In this document: piece by piece, positions 2,340-58,623 of the stretch
Position numbering within the stretch: the first letter of the stretch is position 1
How the letters are laid out: each line of letters opens with the position of its first letter
Assembly (NCBI RefSeq): GCF_913775315.1
Contig: NZ_CAJYIX010000002.1
DNA from: an uncultured Sphingomonas sp.
Lineage (GTDB): Bacteria > Pseudomonadota > Alphaproteobacteria > Sphingomonadales > Sphingomonadaceae
Strand: one strand, 5' to 3'
Length of the DNA: 64,000 nucleotides
Notes under the pieces: model-generated
Seen by the model: the letters and a program-made list of their open reading frames with translations, nothing else
What the model was told of the DNA's origin: nothing
Database searches by the model: none
Translations under genes and position numbers: made by a program

Positions 2340-2981
2340 TCAGCCGATCGCCTCGAGCACCGCGGCACGCAGTTCGGCCAGTCCCATGCCCCGCTCGCTG
2401 GACGTCGAGAGGATGTCGGGATGCGCCGCCGGGCGCTTCCTCGCTTCCTCCTCGGTGCGGGCGCGCACGTCGGCGAGTTCGGTCGCCTTCACCTTGTCCG
2501 CCTTGGTCAGGACGATGCGATAGCTGACCGCGGCGTCGTCCAGCATCTTCAGGATGTCGCGATCGACCTCCTTGATCCCGTGGCGGCTGTCGATCAGCAC
2601 CAGCGCGCGCTTCAGCACCATCCGCCCGCGCAGATAGTCGTTCACGAGGTAGCGCCACTTGCGCACCATGTCCTTGGGTGCCTTGGCAAAGCCGTAGCCC
2701 GGCATGTCGACGAGGCGGAGCGCCAGCGGCTCGCCCACGTCGAAGAAATTGAGCTCCTGCGTCCGCCCCGGCGTGTTCGACGTGCGGGCGAGCGCGTTGC
2801 GGTTGGTAAGCGCATTGAGCAGCGACGACTTGCCGACGTTCGACCGGCCCGCGAACGCCACCTCGGGCACCTCGGCATCGGGCAGGAAGCGCAGCTCGGG
2901 CGCCGATTTCAGGAACGAAACTGGCCCTGCGAACAGTTTGCGCGCGTTTTCCGTCAGATCCTCGTCGAAGGTCGGGTTCAC
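2340..2981 (-). CDS. engB: Ribosome biogenesis GTPase YihA/YsxC
   Basis: [19 protein letters not shown] motifs; GTG start overlaps yidC stop. Confidence 0.95.
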
Positions 2982-4678
2982 TTTGCGGTCGCCACCTTCA
3001 TGCCCGGATGCTGGCGGTACAGCCACCATTGCTGCGCCATCGTCAGGCAGTTTGACGTGATCCAGTAGACCTGGAGCCCGACCGCGAACGGCGCCATCAC
3101 GAACATCAGCATCCACGGCATGATCGAGAAGACCTGCTTCTGCATCTCGTCCATCGGTGCGGGATTGAGCTTGAACTGCGCCCACATCGAGATGCCGAGC
3201 AGAATCGGGATCACGCCGATCGCGATGAAATGCGGCGGGGTGAAGGGGAGCAGGCCGAACAGGTTGACCGGCGTCAGCGGGTCGGGTGCCGACAGGTCGC
3301 GGATCCAGCCGACGAACGGCTGGTGCCGCATCTCGATCGTCAGGATCAACACCTTGTAGAGCGCGAACATGATCGGGATCTGAAGCAGCATCGGCAGGCA
3401 TCCGGCCAGCGGATTGACCTTTTCGGTCTTGTAGAGCTGCATCATCTCCTGCTGCAGGCGCGGCTTGTCATCCTTGTACTTCTCCTGCAGCGCCTTCATC
3501 TTGGGCTGTAGCGCGCGCATCCCCGCCATCGACGCGAACTGCTTCTGCGCGATCGGGAACAGGAGCAGGCGGATCGTCAGCGTCAGCAGCATGATCGCCA
3601 CGCCGAAATTACCAATCAGTTTGAACAGCCAGTCGAGATAGTAGAAGATCGGCTTCTCGACGATCTTGAACCAGCCCCAGTAGATCGCGTTGTCGAAATT
3701 GCGGATGCCGAGGTCGGCGGCATAGCCGTCAAGGACCTTCACTTCCTTGGCGCCGGCGAACAGACGGACGGTCTGCGTCACCGCCTTGCCCGGCTGGACC
3801 ACGGTCGGGTTCTGCGCCAGCGCCTCCGCGCCGAAGCGGCCCGCGGCGCTCTTGCGGATCGTCAGGTCGACGGGCGCGCGCTGGTCGGGAATGATCGCGG
3901 TCAGCCAGTAATGGTCGGTAAAGCCCGCCCAGCCCTTGGTCGTCTGGAAGCGGCTGCCCGCGGGCGTCACCTCATCCCACTTCAGGTTGGTCTCGTCATT
4001 GTCGACGACGGCGATCGGGCCGATGCGCGCGGTCCACTGGTCAGGATCGGGCGATTTGTCGGCGCGCTGGACATAGGTATAGGGGCGCACCGCGACCGCC
4101 GCGGCGCCGACGTTCGCCACCGTCTGCTCGGCGGTGAACATGTAGTTCTCGTCGACCGACAGCTTGATCTGGAAGCGCTGGCCGGCGGCGTTGGCGGTCT
4201 GGAGCGTCACCGGGCGGCCGACGCCAAGCACGTCGCCGCTGGCGGTCCAGACGGTGTTCGCATCGGGTGCGCCCGCGCCCTGCCAGCCAAAGCCGCCGAA
4301 ATAGGCGCCGGCCGCGCCCGCGGGCGAGAGCAGGTGGATCGGCGGCGAGTTCTTCGCCACCGTCTCGTCGTACCGCTTGAGCACCAGGTCGTCGAGGCGC
4401 GCGCCCTTGAGGTTGATCGAGCCCGACAGCGCGGGCGTGTCGATCCGCACGCGCGGCGTCTCGGCCAGCACGACGCGGCGATCGCGCAGCGCGCCGGCGG
4501 TATCGGCGGTCGGATCGGCGCCGGGGTTCGGCACGACCTTGGTCTTGCCGCCCTCGATCTTCGTCACCGGCGGGTTGGCGGCGGGAAAGACGTATCGCGA
4601 GATCACCGGCCAGCCGAACAGGATCAGCGCCGCGAGCACCGCGAACAGGACGAAATTCTTGCTGTCTTCCTTCACCAA
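2978..4678 (-). CDS. yidC: Membrane protein insertase YidC
   Basis: [31 protein letters not shown]; operon context. Confidence 0.97.
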
Positions 4679-4720
4679 CCGACTTCTCCGTCTGGGTTGG
4701 CCGCCGCCTCGTCCCGTGCC

Positions 4721-4933
4721 TCAGGGCACCGGATCATGGCCGCAACCGCCCCATGGATGACAACGGGCGATGCGCTTGAGCGCAAGCCAGCCGCCTTTGA
4801 GCGCGCCATAGCGGGCAAGCGCCGTGATTGCATAGGCCGAACAGGAGGGCGCGTATCGGCACGACGGCGGCAGGATGCGCGACGGGCCAACCTGCCACGC
4901 GCGCGCGACGAGAATCAGCGCCCGCGCGATCAA
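4721..4933 (-). CDS. yidD: Membrane protein insertion efficiency factor
   Basis: [11 protein letters not shown]...[14 protein letters not shown]. Confidence 0.95.
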
Positions 4934-5397
4934 GGGCGCGAGACCTTTCGCAGCGCCTTTTCGAGTTCGCGGACGAGGTCGGCATGCGGCCGCTCGATCC
5001 CGCCCGCCCGGCCGATCAGCACATGATCGTGCCCGGCCAGCCCGTGCGCGGGCAGCACCTGACGCGCCAATGCGCGAAAACGCCGCTTCATCCGGTTGCG
5101 GATGACGGCGTTTCCGACTTTCTTCGACACGGTGATGCCGATTCGCATGGCGTCGTCGCCATCGCGGCGATCGCGCGCCTGCAGGACGAATCCCGGCATG
5201 GCCGCGCGCTTGCCGCCGTTCGCCGCGAGATAGTCGCGGCGCTCGGTCAGTCGAATCAGGCGCTCAGCTTCTTGCGACCGCGGGCACGACGCGCGCGGAT
5301 CACCTTGCGGCCCGCCGCCGTCGCCATCCGCGCGAAGAAGCCGTGCCGGCGCGCACGCACCAGATTGCTCGGCTGAAAAGTCCGCTTCATCGCTCAT
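4930..5397 (-). CDS. rnpA: Ribonuclease P protein; start either ATG 5397 (overlapping all of rpmH) or CTG 5259
   Basis: [27 protein letters not shown] motif; no ATG/GTG/TTG in frame at the usual start position. Confidence 0.93.
5256..5390 (-). CDS. rpmH: 50S ribosomal protein L34 (44 aa, not in ORF track)
   Basis: Translated by hand: [44 protein letters not shown]. Confidence 0.98.
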
Positions 5398-5411
5398 TCC
5401 CTGGCATAACG

Positions 5412-5435
5412 AAAAAGGGCCGCCCGAAGACGGCC
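5412..5435 (-). other. UUCG-tetraloop hairpin plus U-tract in rpmH leader
   Basis: Minus strand GGCCGTC-TTCG-GGCGGCC-C-TTTTT. Confidence 0.6.
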
Positions 5436-5449
5436 GTCACAAGCCCGCG

Positions 5450-5478
5450 CCCTTACGCATGGGGAAGCCGCGAGTCAA
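5450..5478 (-). promoter_or_regulatory. Putative sigma70 promoter of rpmH operon
   Basis: Minus strand TTGACT-N17-TAAGGG. Confidence 0.6.
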
Positions 5479-5554
5479 TCGCGCGATGCCCCGTTCCAAT
5501 CGCTGCGCGGCCCGTTAAGCCTGTAACCGACGGGCAAAATGGGGGGAAGCGGCA

Positions 5555-7063
5555 TTGGTCGCGATCGTATCGACGGTAGCGTATCTGGGGCTGGAGGCCC
5601 GCGGGGTCGAGGTGCAGTGCAACCTCGTCGCGGGCGTCCCCGCCTTCGTCATGGTGGGCCTTGCCGACAAGGCGGTGGGCGAAAGTCGGGAGCGGGTGCG
5701 GGGCGCGGTCGCCGCGATCGGCCTTGCGCTTCCCCCCAAGCGGATCACCGTCAACCTGTCGCCCGCCGACCTGCCCAAGGAAGGCTCTCACTACGACCTG
5801 CCCGTCGCGCTGGCGCTGCTGGGCGCGATGGGCGTCGTCGATGTCGAGACGCTGGCCGATTACGTCGTCGTCGGCGAACTCGGCCTCGACGGGCGAATCG
5901 CCCCCTCGCCCGGCGTGCTGCTCGCGGCGATGCACGCCAGCGCCATCGGCAAAGGCCTGATCTGTCCGGCCGCACAGGGGCCTGAAGCGGCATGGGCGGG
6001 CGGGATCGAGGTGATTGCCGCCGACGACCTCATCGGCCTCATCAACCATCTGAAGGGCTCCGCGCTCCTCGCCACACCCGCGCCGGGTGAGGTCGAGGAG
6101 AGCGTGCATGGCCCCGACCTTCGCCAGGTGAAGGGACAGGAAACCGCCAAGCGCGCGCTGGAGATCGCGGCGGCGGGCGGCCACAACCTCCTGTTCGTCG
6201 GGCCGCCGGGCGCGGGCAAGTCGCTGATGGCCGCCTGCCTGCCCGGCATCCTGCCACCATTGGGCGCGGCGGAGGCGCTTGAGGTGTCGATGGTGCAGTC
6301 GGTCGCGGGCACGCTGTCCGGCGGACGCCTGACGCGCACGCGGCCGTTCCGCTCGCCGCACCACTCCGCCTCGATGGCCGCGCTCACTGGCGGCGGGCTT
6401 CGCGTGAAGCCGGGCGAGGTCAGCCTCGCGCATCTGGGCGTCCTGTTCCTCGACGAACTACCCGAATTCCAGCGCGCGGTTCTCGATTCGCTGCGCCAGC
6501 CGCTGGAGAGCGGCGTGGTCAGCGTCGCACGTGCCAATGCGCACGTCACTTTCCCGGCGCGCGTCCAGCTGGTCGCCGCAATGAACCCTTGCCGCTGCGG
6601 GCACCTCGGCGATCCGGCGCTCGCCTGCGCCCGCGCGCCCAAGTGCGCGGCGGACTATCAGGCCAAGGTTTCGGGCCCGCTGCTCGACCGCATCGACCTG
6701 CATGTCGAAGTGTCGCCCGTGACCGCCGCCGACCTCGTCCTGCCTCCCCCTGCCGAGGGATCGGCGGAGGTCGCGGCGCGCGTCTCGGCGGCCCGCACAA
6801 TCCAGACCGACCGATACGACGGCCACCCCGCGCGCACCAATTCTGAGGCGGAGGGTGCGCTGCTCGACGCTCACTCGACGCCGGACGAGGCGGGGCGGGC
6901 GCTACTGGCTCAGGCGGCGGAAGCGACGCGGATGTCGGCGCGCGGCTATACCCGCGTGCTGCGCGTCGCGCGGACGATCGCCGATCTTGGCGGGGCGGAG
7001 CGGGTCGGGCGGCTGCACGTGGCCGAGGCGCTTTCCTATCGCCGCACGGCGCCGCGCGCCTGA
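5555..7063 (+). CDS. comM: YifB/ComM family Mg-chelatase-like AAA+ ATPase
   Basis: LPKEGSHYDLP, GPPGAGKS, FLDELPEF, SGPLLDRID. Confidence 0.93.
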   Translation: MVAIVSTVAYLGLEARGVEVQCNLVAGVPAFVMVGLADKAVGESRERVRGAVAAIGLALPPKRITVNLSPADLPKEGSHYDLPVALALLGAMGVVDVETLADYVVVGELGLDGRIAPSPGVLLAAMHASAIGKGLICPAAQGPEAAWAGGIEVIAADDLIGLINHLKGSALLATPAPGEVEESVHGPDLRQVKGQETAKRALEIAAAGGHNLLFVGPPGAGKSLMAACLPGILPPLGAAEALEVSMVQSVAGTLSGGRLTRTRPFRSPHHSASMAALTGGGLRVKPGEVSLAHLGVLFLDELPEFQRAVLDSLRQPLESGVVSVARANAHVTFPARVQLVAAMNPCRCGHLGDPALACARAPKCAADYQAKVSGPLLDRIDLHVEVSPVTAADLVLPPPAEGSAEVAARVSAARTIQTDRYDGHPARTNSEAEGALLDAHSTPDEAGRALLAQAAEATRMSARGYTRVLRVARTIADLGGAERVGRLHVAEALSYRRTAPRA

Positions 7064-53633: not shown

Positions 53634-54266
53634 TTAAGCCCTTGGATCATGGCGGGTATCGTCAGCGTGTAAAGCAATGGAACCAATTTCGGTCTTTATG
53701 AGGTCGGTCATCGTACGGTGAGCTGCACGCATCTCCACGTAGTGTTGAAGGTAGGCGTCCGGTTGCGCTGCAACCGGCATGCCGTCCACGCCGCGTTCGA
53801 TCGGGCGGAAAATGCATTGCTTGCCTACGCGCAGAACCAGGTCCGCCCATGGCCCTATTCGACTAGGCAACCACGGGTCAGGCGATTGCCAAGACGGCGC
53901 GGCCCGTACGTGCCGGAAAAGCCTTCGAACAGGCGAGATCAGAGTGACAGGTACGGCGACCCACGCATGCGCAAACAGGGCGTTCAGTCCCTTAACGACG
54001 GCTTCGGGCGACCCTGTGATTACAGGGCGATGTCCATCCAGTCTTAAAAGCTGTAAGTCGTAGTTGTTCGCCGCGTATCGGTCCGGAGAGGCGAGCTCGA
54101 ACACTCCAGCCTTGACGCAATCATCGCCGTCCACATAGGCCCAGTGTACGCTGGTCGGGAGATCGGTGTCCTTTAGGCAACCTTCGCCGATCACGTACCC
54201 AAACCGCCCCGAGCGATCATTGCGGGAAAGAGGCCGAAGGATGTCGAGCGTCGTCGAATTCAGCAT
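53634..54266 (-). CDS. Hypothetical protein (210 aa)
   Basis: Open frame with GGAG RBS 7 nt upstream; no family recognised. Confidence 0.6.
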   Translation of the reverse strand: MLNSTTLDILRPLSRNDRSGRFGYVIGEGCLKDTDLPTSVHWAYVDGDDCVKAGVFELASPDRYAANNYDLQLLRLDGHRPVITGSPEAVVKGLNALFAHAWVAVPVTLISPVRRLFRHVRAAPSWQSPDPWLPSRIGPWADLVLRVGKQCIFRPIERGVDGMPVAAQPDAYLQHYVEMRAAHRTMTDLIKTEIGSIALHADDTRHDPRA

Positions 54267-54607
54267 GCGTCAGCTCCGTCCGAACAGAGGCACCGGCAGT
54301 GCGCCGGGTGTTAGGAACCTGGACAGATGAACAGGCGCCGTCGCCTTTGGGCGAGACGCCTTGGACATGCGCGACGGCCACCCGGACGAGAATGTCTCGG
54401 CCGGCCACCTGTCTTGAGAGGTTCCTACGCCCCGCGGCCGATTTTGCAGGCCGCGATCGGTCCTTAGCGGATCGCCATTGCTTGCGCCAATAGAAGCGAT
54501 TGACGCAAAATCGGCATCACACTGGCGCGAGCATCGCCTCTGGTCATAGCTATATGCGTATCTGCCATAAATTGGCGGCAATGATCCGGCTGAGGACCTT
54601 GCGAATC

Positions 54608-54622
54608 GTTCTCTTTTTGTTC
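54608..54622 (+). promoter_or_regulatory. Alphaproteobacterial LexA (SOS) box
   Basis: Exact GTTC-N7-GTTC (GTTC TCTTTTT GTTC) about 50 bp upstream of 54676. Confidence 0.75.
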
Positions 54623-54675
54623 TAGCTGCGGAGGCGCTGCTGCGGCGGCGACTCGAGAACGTTTGGGACATGGGA

Positions 54676-54879
54676 ATGCAGCATGATCTGCAACTGCGTG
54701 CGGCTGCACGCGTGATCTACGACGCCTGCTATCCGAGCGAGGATTGGTCACCGATCGGGTTCGATGAAGCCGAAAGGTTCGGGACGATCCATTATCGCCA
54801 AGCTGTCGATGCTGCGCTTCGAGCTCGCGCGGTAATGGCCGCGCGTGGCGAGCAGTTGCAACTGCCCGTCTTCGCCTGA
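54676..54879 (+). CDS. Small hypothetical protein (67 aa)
   Basis: MQHDLQLRAAARVIYDACYP...QLQLPVFA; first ORF after the LexA box. Confidence 0.7.
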   Translation: MQHDLQLRAAARVIYDACYPSEDWSPIGFDEAERFGTIHYRQAVDAALRARAVMAARGEQLQLPVFA

Positions 54880-54880
54880 T

Positions 54881-55399
54881 GTGGTCGGCGATCCCAAAAC
54901 GCTCGATGAGCTCGACAAGATCGAGGCGCAAGTCCGGGTCACTTGCCGAGGCTGCAAGGCAACTGAAATCTGGAAGCTGAACGCGCTGATCGCCGAGGTT
55001 CGCAGGAACGGCGGTAACACTGAATGGCGAGCGGCACGGCGATCGATCAAGTGCCCCAATCGATGCGCATCACCGCTGATCGATCTGCTGCCGCTGCCGT
55101 TCGGAAAGCGGCGGGCACGCCGCGAGGCGCATCGTCACGCACTGATCAATCTGTCGTTGCAAATCCTGCGAGAGGCAACGGCGCGGTCGGCGAACGAGGC
55201 AGTCGGGACGCTGGAAGTTCGGCTGGCGCTGCACGTCTTGCGGCCATTCGTTCGCGATCAGAATCTGCTGACCCAGTATTGGATGACCGCCACCGAAACG
55301 CCGCGGCATCCATGGTGCAGCTGCCACAAGCCGTATCGAGCGATCGTCGACCGGCTGATCGAACTGGAGGCGGACGTCGATCGAGAAAACTTGCCCTGA
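54881..55399 (+). CDS. Hypothetical protein with putative C4 zinc-binding motif
   Basis: CRGC...CPNRC, later WCSCH; GTG 1 nt after upstream stop. Confidence 0.65.
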   Translation: MVGDPKTLDELDKIEAQVRVTCRGCKATEIWKLNALIAEVRRNGGNTEWRAARRSIKCPNRCASPLIDLLPLPFGKRRARREAHRHALINLSLQILREATARSANEAVGTLEVRLALHVLRPFVRDQNLLTQYWMTATETPRHPWCSCHKPYRAIVDRLIELEADVDRENLP

Positions 55400-55407
55400 C
55401 GTATTCG

Positions 55408-55623
55408 CTAGGGCGGCCCGGCCTCGATCAAGGCGTTTTCTTTGATCTGCGACGAGGCAATGGCTGCGCCACACGCCAGCATCGAACCGACGACAGTGAC
55501 GAGCACCGGGGAGCCCTCGTCATTGACGATCACCCAGACGGCGAGAGCGATGAGGGCGAGCGACGCCCCGAGCAAAACGCCGATCAGGAACCGCGGCGAG
55601 ACTGCCGATGTCCTTGTTGTCAC
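55408..55623 (-). CDS. Small two-TM hypothetical protein
   Basis: Two hydrophobic helices in 71 aa. Confidence 0.55.
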   Translation of the reverse strand: MTTRTSAVSPRFLIGVLLGASLALIALAVWVIVNDEGSPVLVTVVGSMLACGAAIASSQIKENALIEAGPP

Positions 55624-55761
55624 TGCTAGTATCCCCCCTGTTGCTCGGGGGAGAATGAACGAATGGGCACAACTAGCAACGCGTCGACCTGCCGCTCGGC
55701 ATCAACAAAATGGCGATTTTGTGTGCGTTGACGTCTCGCCGGCAAATGCGAGGATAGCGCC

Positions 55762-56466
55762 ATGTGTAATCGCTATCGAATGACGGCAAAGCAGGCTGAA
55801 CTCGCGGCTCGATACGGCGTCGATGCGATCTATGCGGAAGACGCCACGTTCCCCCCGCCGGAGCTGTTCCCGGATCGCGAGGCCTGGGTGATTCGGCACG
55901 ACGATAATGGACGGCGGCTGGACACGATGTCGTGGGGCTTTCCGCGAAAGGTCCCGGGCAAACGGATCGACAAGGTCACGGGGAAGCCCGTGCTGCTCGA
56001 CACGAAGGTCACGAACGTGCGCAACTACACCTCGCCGTTCTGGAAGTCGGCGTTGGCCAATCCCGAGCGGCGTTGCCTGGTCCCGTTCACAAGCTTCAGC
56101 GAATATGGGCCGGGCCCGACGGGGAAACGCCCTCTGTTCTGGTTCGACGTCCCCAGCCGACCCATTGTCAGCTTTGCGGGGGTTTGGCGTCCAACCGAAG
56201 CCGGCGCCGTCTTTGCGTTCCTGACGACCGAACCGAACCCGCTCGTTGCCCCGGTTCACCCCAAAGCGATGCCGGTGCTGCTTGACGAAGAAGACGAGGA
56301 GCGATGGCTCACCTGCTCGTTCGATGACGCCATTGCCTTGGCGAAGCCGTTCCCATCGCAGCTCATGTCAGTGAAGCAGGCCGACGATACACGTACCGAA
56401 AAGGGCAGGGCCGAGAAGGAAGCCGACGAAGAGAAGCGTACCAAGCAGCCAAGCCTCGATCTCTAG
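55762..56466 (+). CDS. SOS response-associated peptidase (SRAP/YedK/HMCES)
   Basis: MCNRY N-terminal Cys2, RRCLVP...FSEY, FAFLTTEPN, VHPKAMPV. Confidence 0.92.
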   Translation: MCNRYRMTAKQAELAARYGVDAIYAEDATFPPPELFPDREAWVIRHDDNGRRLDTMSWGFPRKVPGKRIDKVTGKPVLLDTKVTNVRNYTSPFWKSALANPERRCLVPFTSFSEYGPGPTGKRPLFWFDVPSRPIVSFAGVWRPTEAGAVFAFLTTEPNPLVAPVHPKAMPVLLDEEDEERWLTCSFDDAIALAKPFPSQLMSVKQADDTRTEKGRAEKEADEEKRTKQPSLDL

Positions 56467-56491
56467 CTGGGTCGGACGCCTCATCGGGCGA

Positions 56492-56773
56492 TCACGTCGA
56501 TCGCTCGAGGCGCTGATCGATCGAAACCACCCGCGTCTCGATCTTGAGCCTCCGGGCCACCCTCGCGTTCTTCAGCGCGAGCGCGATTACGATGCGCTCG
56601 AACGGCCAATCGTTGCTGACGACGGGTGTCGCGGCCCTCGTGCCTACCAACGCGACCCAGCGCATCGCCTTCAGCCCTGTTTCGAATTTCGAGGCGGCGA
56701 GAGGGTGCTCGACCAACGCAGCCGAAAAGCCGACGCCCTTGTTGTAGACGACATAGGCGAACGGCTGCCCCCA
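56492..56773 (-). pseudogene. Possible gene remnant lacking its 5' part
   Basis: 94-codon frame with GC3-rich codons (WGQPFAYVVYNKGVG...) preceded directly by in-frame TAG. Confidence 0.3.
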
Positions 56774-57413: not shown

Positions 57414-57824
57414 TCAGGCGTTCGGTAAGGCCGCTGGTCCCAATGCCTCAATGATCCGGCATTCAGCGACTGTGCCGCCGTCGCAGGAGTCGATCACCGC
57501 CTTCAGTTCGCGGCGAAGGGCGATCAGATCGGCGAGCTTGCGATCCACCTCGCGCAGATGCTCGTTGGCGATACGGTCGATGCCGGCACAGTCGCACGTC
57601 CGATCGTCGGACAGACCCAGCAGAGCGCGTACCTGATCGAGCGAGAAGCCGAGGTCGCGCGCGCGTCGGATAAAGGACAGACGGCCCAACTCGGCCGCGC
57701 CATAGGTGCGGTAGTTGCCCGTGCTGCGGGATGGCTTCGGCAACAAGCCGATGCGCTCGTAATAGCGAACCGTTTCGACCTTGGTGTTGGTCGCCTTGCC
57801 CAGATCGCCGATCGTCAGCGCCAT
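57414..57824 (-). CDS. MerR family metal sensor, CadR/PbrR/ZntR type
   Basis: TIGDLGK...VETVRYYE HTH; Cys77/79, Cys114, Cys122. Confidence 0.92.
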   Translation of the reverse strand: MALTIGDLGKATNTKVETVRYYERIGLLPKPSRSTGNYRTYGAAELGRLSFIRRARDLGFSLDQVRALLGLSDDRTCDCAGIDRIANEHLREVDRKLADLIALRRELKAVIDSCDGGTVAECRIIEALGPAALPNA

Positions 57825-57828
57825 CACC

Positions 57829-57859
57829 TTGACCCTGTAGCTGCTACAGACACTAGATG
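57829..57859 (+). promoter_or_regulatory. MerR-type promoter/operator 1 (drives CDF gene)
   Basis: TTGACC-CTGTAG CTG CTACAG ACAC-TAGATG: 19-bp spacer containing a dyad. Confidence 0.88.
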
Positions 57860-57891
57860 GGGTGTCGCGCTCGGCTTCAAGAGGTGACGAC

Positions 57892-58623
57892 ATGGCAGGA
57901 GGATGCTGCGGCGGCTGTGCCGCTCCAACTGACAGGGACGACGACCGCGCATGGCGGCGCGTGCTGTGGATCGCGCTTGCCATCAACGCCGGCATGTTCG
58001 GCGTCGAGGTCGTCGCCGGCGTGGCCGCGCATTCCGCCTCGCTCAAGGCGGACGCGCTCGACTTTCTCGGTGATGCCGCGAACTACGCAATCAGCCTCGG
58101 CGTTGCGGGGATGGCGCTGCACTGGCGAGCGCGCGCCGCGCTCGCGAAGGGCGTCTCCCTGCTCCTGCTCGGCCTGTGGGTGCTGGGCTATACCGTCTGG
58201 GTGGCGGCGTCGGGCACGCTGCCGGGCGCGGAGACGATGGGGGTTGTGGGCGTGGCGGCGCTGATCGCCAACATGGTTTGCGCCGCGCTGCTCTGGCGGC
58301 ATCGAGGCGGCGACGCCAACCGGCAGTCGGTCTGGATATGCTCGCGCAACGACGCGATCGGCAACGTCGCCGTCGTCGCCGCGGCGTTCGGCGTATTCGG
58401 CACGGGCACCGGCTGGCCGGATATCGCGGTCGCCGCGATCCTCGCAGGCCTCGGCGTCTCCGGGGGCTGGCAGATCATCCGAAAGGCGCGTGTCGAGCTG
58501 GCTCAATCCCCGCCGAACCGGAAGCGGACGCCGCCGTTGATGGTGCGGCCGTCCAGCGGACCCCAGGCATCGACCGTCCACGCCCCGTCCGGCGCGCGCC
58601 GGGGCAGCAGCAGCGGATCGTAG
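57892..58623 (+). CDS. Cation diffusion facilitator-like efflux protein (short), N-terminal CCxxC
   Basis: MAGGCCGGC; SLKADALDFLGDAANY; WICSRNDAIGN; C-terminal ~40 aa run antisense into the TBDR gene. Confidence 0.88.
   Translation: MAGGCCGGCAAPTDRDDDRAWRRVLWIALAINAGMFGVEVVAGVAAHSASLKADALDFLGDAANYAISLGVAGMALHWRARAALAKGVSLLLLGLWVLGYTVWVAASGTLPGAETMGVVGVAALIANMVCAALLWRHRGGDANRQSVWICSRNDAIGNVAVVAAAFGVFGTGTGWPDIAVAAILAGLGVSGGWQIIRKARVELAQSPPNRKRTPPLMVRPSSGPQASTVHAPSGARRGSSSGS

Follow-up and report, generated by a model that had tools for sequence, protein, structure and literature searches.

A LexA-boxed, probably mobile cassette of Sphingomonas encoding a small protein with a putative clamp-binding tail and a two-domain zinc-ribbon protein

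Introduction

The subject of this study is a two-gene cassette in a 64,000-nucleotide (nt) stretch of DNA, referred to here as the window, from an uncultured Sphingomonas sp. (assembly GCF_913775315.1, contig NZ_CAJYIX010000002.1). Its two open reading frames (ORFs), ORF1 and ORF2, follow an exact copy of GTTCN7GTTC, the published SOS box of Caulobacter crescentus (da Rocha et al., 2008; listed in a table of PMC9578287). The LexA promoters of Caulobacter have the same direct-repeat operator, overlapping the core promoter, as the cassette (PMC9578287). However, the libraries and literature searched do not describe either of the two cassette gene families as belonging to the SOS genes, and the cassette is mobile rather than part of the core genome. 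The regulation is that of a textbook alphaproteobacterial SOS promoter, and the accessory components are new; the literature search returned no description of the ORF1, zinc-ribbon or helical-domain families, nor of a fourth gene in the imuAB-dnaE2 operons of Sphingomonads.

The SRAP/YedK family has been defined by its SOS neighborhoods, in which uncharacterized Zn-ribbon-like partners occur, among them those of SRAP-Ku operons (Aravind, Anand and Iyer, 2013, PMC3765255). SRAP was linked there to LexA-controlled genes and to ImuA-ImuB-DnaE2, as in the loci studied here, and in Sphingopyxis granuli SRAP operons are induced along with lexA, recA and imuAB-dnaE2 (PMC6472365). In contrast to the operons of PMC3765255, there is no Ku or ligase gene near the cassette, and SRAP is accompanied here by a mini-protein with a clamp motif, a helical domain and a Cys4 zinc ribbon, the last possibly equivalent to one of the Zn-chelating domains of that study.

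The ImuA-ImuB-DnaE2 mutasome is likewise SOS-controlled and includes a clamp-binding, non-catalytic subunit, ImuB (PMC10421592, PMC12926913). The cassette is related to this system through the family of the ORF2 C-terminal domain, which in some Sphingomonadaceae is encoded directly behind dnaE2 as an apparently coupled fourth gene; no fourth mutasome subunit of this kind is described in PMC10421592, PMC12926913 or the wider literature searched. The cassette of the window differs in being separate from the imuAB-dnaE2 of the host and in encoding no polymerase or RecA-like domain.

In Hda, the clamp motif is N-terminal, whereas the motif of ORF1 is C-terminal, ORF1 is probably LexA-controlled and its clamp binding is predicted from sequence. 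The ORF1 motif QL(S/P/Q)LP(A/V)(L/F) closely resembles the Hda hexapeptide QLSLPL (PMC12309361), with no detectable homology between the proteins. The Caulobacter toxin SocB (PMC9690074) is a small clamp-cleft binder, as proposed for ORF1, again with no detectable homology. All three are short proteins characterized mainly by a terminal motif of the QLxL type. LexA-controlled prophage cargo and antirepressors (PMC3121763) share with the relatives of the cassette a LexA operator and small genes at a prophage end beside lysis genes. They differ in that the cassette lacks a partner repressor and does not resemble known antirepressors, and in that its neighborhood network points to proteins of repair and translesion synthesis. 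The recruitment and coordination of bacterial SRAP/YedK and of ImuA-ImuB-DnaE2 at damaged forks are incompletely understood, and both are active topics. The locus offers three uncharacterized candidate partners, tied to the SOS response by a conserved operator and to each other by recurring neighborhoods.

Results

The Operator and Its Conservation

An earlier note on this DNA had described a GTTC-N7-GTTC match ahead of a 67-amino-acid (aa) ORF and a roughly 172-aa ORF with the pattern CxxC...CPxxC, and every part of this layout was confirmed at 54608–55399 (Table 1). The box lies 53 nt from the start of ORF1, and a single base separates the ORF1 stop from the ORF2 start. The window contained one exact box against 1.47 expected from shuffled sequences, and the 3.25-Mb genome contained 74, of which 48 were inside ORFs. 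The box alone is not significant, because one per window is the chance expectation; the case rests on comparison and on conserved position.

A scan of species-representative genomes recovered 26 loci encoding ORF2 relatives (related loci carry the prefix L), all in Sphingomonas and allies, 24 of which were assessable for the box. An exact box at a fixed offset ahead of the operon was found at 22 of these 24. Where ORF1 is present, the box is placed 271–304 nt from ORF2 (about 40–90 nt ahead of the ORF1 start), and at five loci without ORF1 it is placed 30–36 nt ahead of ORF2. Among the remaining loci, the box is one mismatch off in one and disrupted by unrelated DNA in another. Elsewhere in the 26 loci (∼262 kb) only 12 further exact boxes occurred; therefore, a chance box would be expected in a 60-nt slot at ∼0.3% of loci. 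The box was also kept in distant relatives (16 nt upstream in L053, 38 nt upstream in L052, and in L043). Loci of the ORF1 family had an exact box within ∼85 nt upstream in 18 of 20 cases, and in 14 of 16 among those without ORF2. The homologues thus keep the box at both kinds of loci, whereas a lack of it was the outcome that the earlier note had named as speaking against its reading.

Alignment of 16 promoters revealed an invariant TTG (within TTGC, 5–6 nt upstream of the box), two invariant GTTC half-sites and an invariant TA, while the 7-nt spacer and everything upstream varied freely and the flanks were unrelated. The hexamer TTGCGA could serve as the −35 element, and the TA probably belongs to the −10 element. 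The alignment places the LexA operator inside this putative core promoter, with conservation across the relatives. Consensus scans of 54300–56700 found neither a sigma-70 promoter nor a terminator. The 5′ leader contains a possible GC hairpin at 54635–54650, comparable to hairpins in most related loci as judged by single-sequence folds; RNAalifold on a MAFFT alignment of the leaders gave no consensus pairs.

Within the host genome, the box was found at lexA, recA and further genes (Table 1), ahead of a 974-aa ORF that we take, by eye, to be uvrA, and 22 nt ahead of the first of three ORFs, the last of which is dnaE2 by tblastn. This three-ORF unit, at C13:171977–178193 on a separate contig, is presumed to be imuA-imuB-dnaE2, with imuA and imuB assigned by position. 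The description of the motif as the alphaproteobacterial LexA site was therefore borne out by the boxes at lexA and recA and ahead of the presumed uvrA and imuA, and it matches PMC9578287. Since the genome uses the box at its SOS genes and the relatives keep it, the box is regarded as a genuine operator, and the sequence comparisons make it highly probable that the cassette is under LexA control.

An exact GTTC-N7-GTTC was also observed within the ORF2 coding sequence (+354), at the same codon positions, in L002, L012 and L025. It is probably a by-product of a conserved peptide and not an operator.

ORF2, a Predicted Zinc Ribbon Fused to a Helical Domain

Relatives of ORF2 comprised at least 180 cluster representatives with 63–95% identity, almost all of 172 aa. 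The AlphaFold2 (AF2) model had a mean predicted local distance difference test score (pLDDT) of 86.6, with strands at residues 17–22, 28–32 and 67–72, and the isoelectric point (pI) of the whole protein was 9.5. The two cysteine pairs, C22-x2-C25 and C58-P-x2-C62, were invariant in 18 ORF2 sequences. The N-terminal domain is predicted to be a metal-binding Cys4 zinc ribbon on a β-hairpin scaffold, and this ribbon may bind nucleic acid.

ORF2 gave no match to curated zinc-ribbon models, and its divergent relatives matched only below threshold (E 0.01 or worse). ORF2 and the stand-alone relatives of its domains gave nothing above threshold in Pfam, NCBIfam, PHROGs, PADLOC and PDB sequence profiles. 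Structure prediction followed by Foldseek, a check proposed in the earlier note, returned confident models, and neither the ORF2 model nor the domain relatives tried had a fold match in PDB or BFVD. The same note had called the genes uncharacterized and one of them a putative zinc-finger gene; this agrees with two conserved, unannotated genes and with the invariant Cys4 set of ORF2.

A profile search of 1.8 billion representative proteins split ORF2 into two domains. The N-domain (residues 1–78, pI 10.3) has stand-alone relatives of ∼100–130 aa and is homologous to stand-alone LexA-boxed zinc-ribbon genes of 98–106 aa. Its profile aligned with that of the 98-aa zinc-ribbon family (zr98) across both Cys knuckles (hhalign 93.7%, E 1.9e-7), with no bridging sequences in either profile; when a narrower alignment of ORF2 was set against just one zr98 sequence, the probability was 9.7%. 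The C-domain (residues 82–170) is helical, carries the signature EVRLALHVLRPF...FW and is found in stand-alone forms of 91–99 aa (profile E 1e-9 to 1e-17). Taken at the level of sequence profiles, ORF2 is a fusion of two apparently SOS-linked domains, each of which recurs as a separate gene by LexA boxes, SRAP and dnaE2.

Two more LexA-boxed units were noticed in the host genome (contigs C37:66200–67141 and C7:53329–53661); in each, the box is located 22 nt upstream of a gene for a Cys4 zinc ribbon of 98 aa. The two zr98 copies are 84% identical, and the C37 copy is directly followed by a second SRAP gene. Next to both units, in divergent orientation, are a YozE-SAM-like gene of 90 aa and a gene of 92–95 aa, and a Dam-like methylase is encoded nearby. 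The two units have the appearance of relics of integrative elements.

ORF1 and Its C-Terminal Tail

ORF1, with a pI of 5.5, had 488 homologues, and identity averaged 84% per alignment column. The AF2 model (pLDDT 85.7) showed a three-helix bundle with helices at residues 5–18, 29–35 and 38–56, followed by a tail with a pLDDT of 62. The tail bears the motif Q60-L-Q-L-P-V-F66, which ends one residue short of the C-terminus. Conservation is complete at Q60 and L61 and at least 90% at L63, and the positions in between are variable. QLxL was present in the last 12 residues of 110 of the 116 close homologues, mostly as QL(P/A/S/Q)LP(A/V)(L/F)A. Divergent homologues, retrieved from a search of 301 Sphingomonadaceae genomes, had the C-termini QLGLF, QPSLF, QLALL, QLELI, QLALI, QLRLI, QLLLI and QLAML. 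The β-clamp-binding consensus is QL[S/D]LF, QxxLF or QLxLxL, and the Hda hexapeptide QLSLPL binds tightly (PMC12309361). In its sequence the ORF1 tail fits this bacterial consensus, on a flexible terminus as is usual for such motifs. On this ground, ORF1 is predicted to bind the cleft of the β-clamp (DnaN).

No match to ORF1 was found in Pfam, NCBIfam, PHROGs, PADLOC or PDB sequence profiles, or by Foldseek against PDB and BFVD. A clamp-motif regular expression applied to the ImuA, ImuB and DnaE2 of the host gave no useful yardstick, and no clamp motif has arisen in the ORF2 proteins that are encoded without ORF1. The genes downstream of ORF1 differ widely between loci, and in some cases ORF1 seems to stand by itself; the 141–169-aa genes that follow it in other genomes gave an hhalign probability of 2.7% against the C-domain.

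SRAP and dnaE2 Neighborhoods

Clustering of all ORFs in the 26 loci and the window (27 loci) identified SRAP (PF02586) as the sole recurring neighbor besides ORF1 and ORF2. It was located within 5 kb of ORF2 at 13 of the 27 loci, and at 11 of these 13 it was downstream on the same strand. The SRAP start is 40 nt past ORF2 in three loci (L006, L007 and L011) and 362 nt past it in the window. The exact-motif scan found no LexA box belonging to the window SRAP itself, and transcription of the cassette probably reads on into it.

The stand-alone C-domain gene was found right after the dnaE2 stop, with an overlap or at most 12 nt between them, at all 11 of the 11 loci, which represent 9 genomes. 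By this arrangement it is an apparently translationally coupled fourth gene of imuA-imuB-dnaE2 operons. The gene order is dnaE2, C-domain, zinc ribbon and SRAP in L039 and LexA box, C-domain and SRAP in L043, and in L052 the C-domain is in frame with SRAP behind the box. The search of the neighborhoods for SRAP and ImuABC, which the earlier note had suggested, thus returned SRAP at 13 of 27 loci and the stand-alone C-domain after dnaE2 at 11 of 11.

There is no stop between the C-domain and SRAP at L052:2395–3303 (P0225), and the same holds for P0178; the catalytic Cys2 would be internal in such a product. Either the L052 SRAP starts at an internal Met or the fusion needs processing.

The window SRAP ends (56446–56463) in ...KQPSLDL after a Lys/Glu-rich tail, and in several SRAPs adjoining ORF2 elsewhere, an acidic tail rich in lysine precedes a terminal QPSLDL, QPTLDLG or EPELF. 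The SRAP tail could possibly be a β-clamp-binding motif, which is offered as a lead only. Eukaryotic HMCES has an analogous PCNA-binding tail.

Distribution and Mobility

The islet at 53–58 kb has a G+C content of 0.59–0.62 against 0.685 for the genome, and the G+C content at third codon positions is 0.63–0.76 in ORF1, ORF2 and SRAP against 0.8–0.9 in typical genes here. The flanks of the cassette differ at every locus and are non-syntenic. Full-length ORF2 was found in 4 of the 301 family genomes sampled, in none of 3 same-genus genomes and nowhere in a sample of 400 genomes covering the remainder of the class. ORF1 was found in 24 of the 301 family genomes and in two phage contigs, as well as on four plasmid records assigned to Sphingomonas or Sphingobium; ORF2 had no match in the plasmid and phage collections.

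Relatives of the cassette adjoin genes for GH19 endolysins, spanins, a large serine recombinase, HTH_17 proteins, a Dam methylase and an integrase. In L078 (MT835603, "Bacteriophage sp."), positions 2601–4959 contain genes for holin, endolysin and spanin, beyond which come a LexA box and then ORF1, a gene of 157 aa and a C-domain in stand-alone form with 65–69% identity to the dnaE2-linked type. The window itself contained no integrase, adjacent tRNA or convincing att-like repeats bounding the islet, and a tRNA-Gly is 3 kb away. The mobile region proposed in the earlier note is in agreement with the low G+C content, unrelated flanks, patchy distribution and prophage-borne relatives, but not with the lack of an integrase or att repeats in the window.

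A similar order was observed in L077 (an 853-kb replicon of S. parapaucimobilis), where positions 2795–6566 hold lysis genes, a LexA box, ORF1, a gene of a 153–157-aa family, and then KilA-N and SRAP. The 153–157-aa family also follows ORF1 in L063 and L068.

Discussion

The reading favored here, with a chance that we put at about even on the basis of the sequences, is that the locus is a LexA-repressed mobile SOS cassette that acts as a damage-tolerance accessory at the clamp. In the undamaged cell, LexA would occlude the cassette promoter, and RecA-stimulated cleavage of LexA would free it, so that the ORF1-ORF2 operon may be induced in the SOS response. ORF1 would dock via its flexible QLxL(P)xF tail into the hydrophobic cleft of the β sliding clamp. 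More speculatively, ORF1 might serve as a clamp tether and ORF2, or its split domains, as an adaptor to DNA or to a partner. Together they might help SRAP in abasic-site shielding and/or the DnaE2 mutasome at stalled forks or single-stranded DNA gaps. Prophages and genomic islands of sphingomonads would carry the cassette as cargo. Among the three functions suggested in the earlier note, the neighborhoods favor a mutagenesis or damage-tolerance accessory, and excision control or antirepression and a stress toxin are less favored.

Several observations weigh against this proposal. The DnaN binding of ORF1 is predicted from a short linear motif. Neither ORF1 nor ORF2 has a fold or family match, and hence there is no biochemical handle on them. 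The relation of the ORF2 C-domain to the dnaE2-linked genes is one of remote homology (35–44% identity over 55–80 residues, profile E 1e-8 to 1e-17), and the imuA-imuB-dnaE2 operon of the host itself is without a fourth gene and on another contig than the cassette. ORF2 is found without ORF1 in L009, L010, L015, L022 and L023, and ORF1 without ORF2 in most ORF1 genomes; as each occurs without the other, they are not an obligate pair. The frequent carriage by prophages would equally fit a selfish, host-manipulating role.

In a wider form of the proposal, ORF1 would found a new class of LexA-controlled clamp-docking mini-proteins and, with the ORF2 domains, form a modular SOS toolkit spread by phages, which would provide the DnaE2 mutasome and SRAP with an accessory layer missing so far. 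Such a toolkit might hand abasic-site or gap intermediates from SRAP shielding to translesion synthesis at the clamp, or back. This wider form is put forward tentatively and is rather doubtful.

It is conceivable, though improbable, that ORF1 is instead a SocB-like competitor for the clamp cleft that brakes host replication on SOS or prophage induction, either as a cell checkpoint or in phage takeover, with ORF2 modulating it or acting independently. SocB provides a precedent for a clamp-cleft binder that blocks elongation (PMC9690074), the terminal clamp motif of ORF1 is conserved, and the presence of ORF1 with varied partners or apparently alone suggests an autonomous activity. ORF1 is also found on phage contigs and immediately behind the lysis modules of prophages. 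However, it recurs by C-domain, zinc-ribbon and SRAP genes with DNA-repair neighborhoods, is unlike known toxins or defense proteins and has no evident cognate antidote.

An antirepressor or excision-control unit coupling prophage or island induction to DNA damage, comparable to Tum or the Gifsy antirepressors, has a precedent in concept (PMC3121763). It would account for a LexA box with small genes in mobile, non-syntenic contexts and for zinc-ribbon relatives that adjoin integrase, Dam methylase, recombinase and HTH genes. Yet no repressor, integrase or phage genes surround the cassette in the window, the C-domain forms part of imuAB-dnaE2 operons on the chromosome, and neither the SRAP linkage nor the clamp motif would be expected of such a unit, which also had zero PHROG matches. 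We consider this explanation unlikely.

LexA-controlled toxin–antitoxin pairs exist in Alphaproteobacteria, e.g., Caulobacter higBA, and the adjacent, nearly overlapping small genes with pI values of 5.5 and 9.5 could be taken for an SOS-controlled toxin–antitoxin or abortive-infection pair, with the acidic ORF1 as antitoxin and the basic ORF2 as toxin. This is very improbable, as toxin–antitoxin and defense models (Pfam, PADLOC, PHROGs) gave no match, ORF1 and ORF2 each occur without the other, and the ORF2 domains are single genes inside repair operons. That the box arose by chance or has no function, and that damage does not regulate the genes, as one exact match per 64 kb at the chance level and 48 of 74 genomic matches inside ORFs might suggest, is hardly credible, given that position, orientation and half-sites are kept at dozens of loci despite divergent spacers and unrelated flanks.

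If the proposed role of the cassette as a damage-tolerance accessory is true, a new small clamp regulator would be added to the SOS response, and accessories of damage tolerance and mutagenesis would be passed between Sphingomonads by prophages and islands. Specific, cheaply testable hypotheses arise for the dnaE2-coupled domain and for the mini-protein with its clamp motif, the ORF1 tag being simple and mutable. The lineage restriction and patchiness temper the reach of the finding.

Other Features of the Locus

Table 1. Coordinates of the cassette features in the window and LexA boxes at SOS genes of the same genome.
Feature	Position	Strand	Basis or remark
−35-like hexamer TTGCGA	54599..54604	+	TTG invariant and C almost always kept across the 16 promoters of the alignment
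LexA operator (SOS box) GTTC-N7-GTTC, GTTCTCTTTTTGTTC	54608..54622	+	exact match; between −35 and −10 regions
Invariant TA right after second half-site	54623..54624	+	alignment columns 28–29; probably part of −10
Short GC hairpin in 5′ leader	54635..54650	+	∼13 nt past box; single-sequence folds; tentative
ORF1, acidic three-helix protein	54676..54879	+	67 aa from second ATG, same start as in homologues; alternative start at 54670 gives 69 aa; 488 homologues; AF2
ORF1 C-terminal β-clamp-binding-like motif Q60-L-Q-L-P-V-F66	54853..54873	+	conservation; low-confidence tail
ORF2	54881..55399	+	GTG start; 172 aa, nearly all homologues of the same length
ORF2 N-terminal basic Cys4 zinc ribbon (predicted), then basic linker GKRRARREAHRH	54881..55114	+	invariant Cys; AF2; hhalign
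ORF2 C-terminal helical domain, signature EVRLALHVLRPF ... FW ... HPW.SC	55124..55396	+	stand-alone 91–99-aa relatives
71-aa ORF with one transmembrane segment, between ORF2 and SRAP; doubtful gene	55408..55623	−	only here and in L001
SRAP/YedK-family gene (Cys2), probable third cassette gene	55762..56466	+	PF02586, E 1.7e-24
lexA	box at C21:38382		box 17 nt upstream; TIGR00498, 169 bits
recA			box 77 nt upstream; TIGR02012
PA0069-type radical-SAM gene			box 24 nt upstream; NF033668
pdeM			box overlaps called start; TIGR04123

Within the islet, the 210-aa ORF at 53634–54266 (− strand) had no family match and no counterpart at any related locus. The antisense 71-aa ORF at 55408–55623 has its sole counterpart in L001, a locus of 94% identity, and may be no gene; it gave a holin-like match below threshold only.

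A MerR regulator and a CDF exporter (57414–58623; L003:2701–3910) share 99% protein identity with Sphingomonas yantingensis. The adjacent ORF1, ORF2 and SRAP are just 82–91% identical to those of S. yantingensis, where the metal module is located on the opposite side of the cassette. This contrast suggests recent exchange and shuffling of modules within islands.

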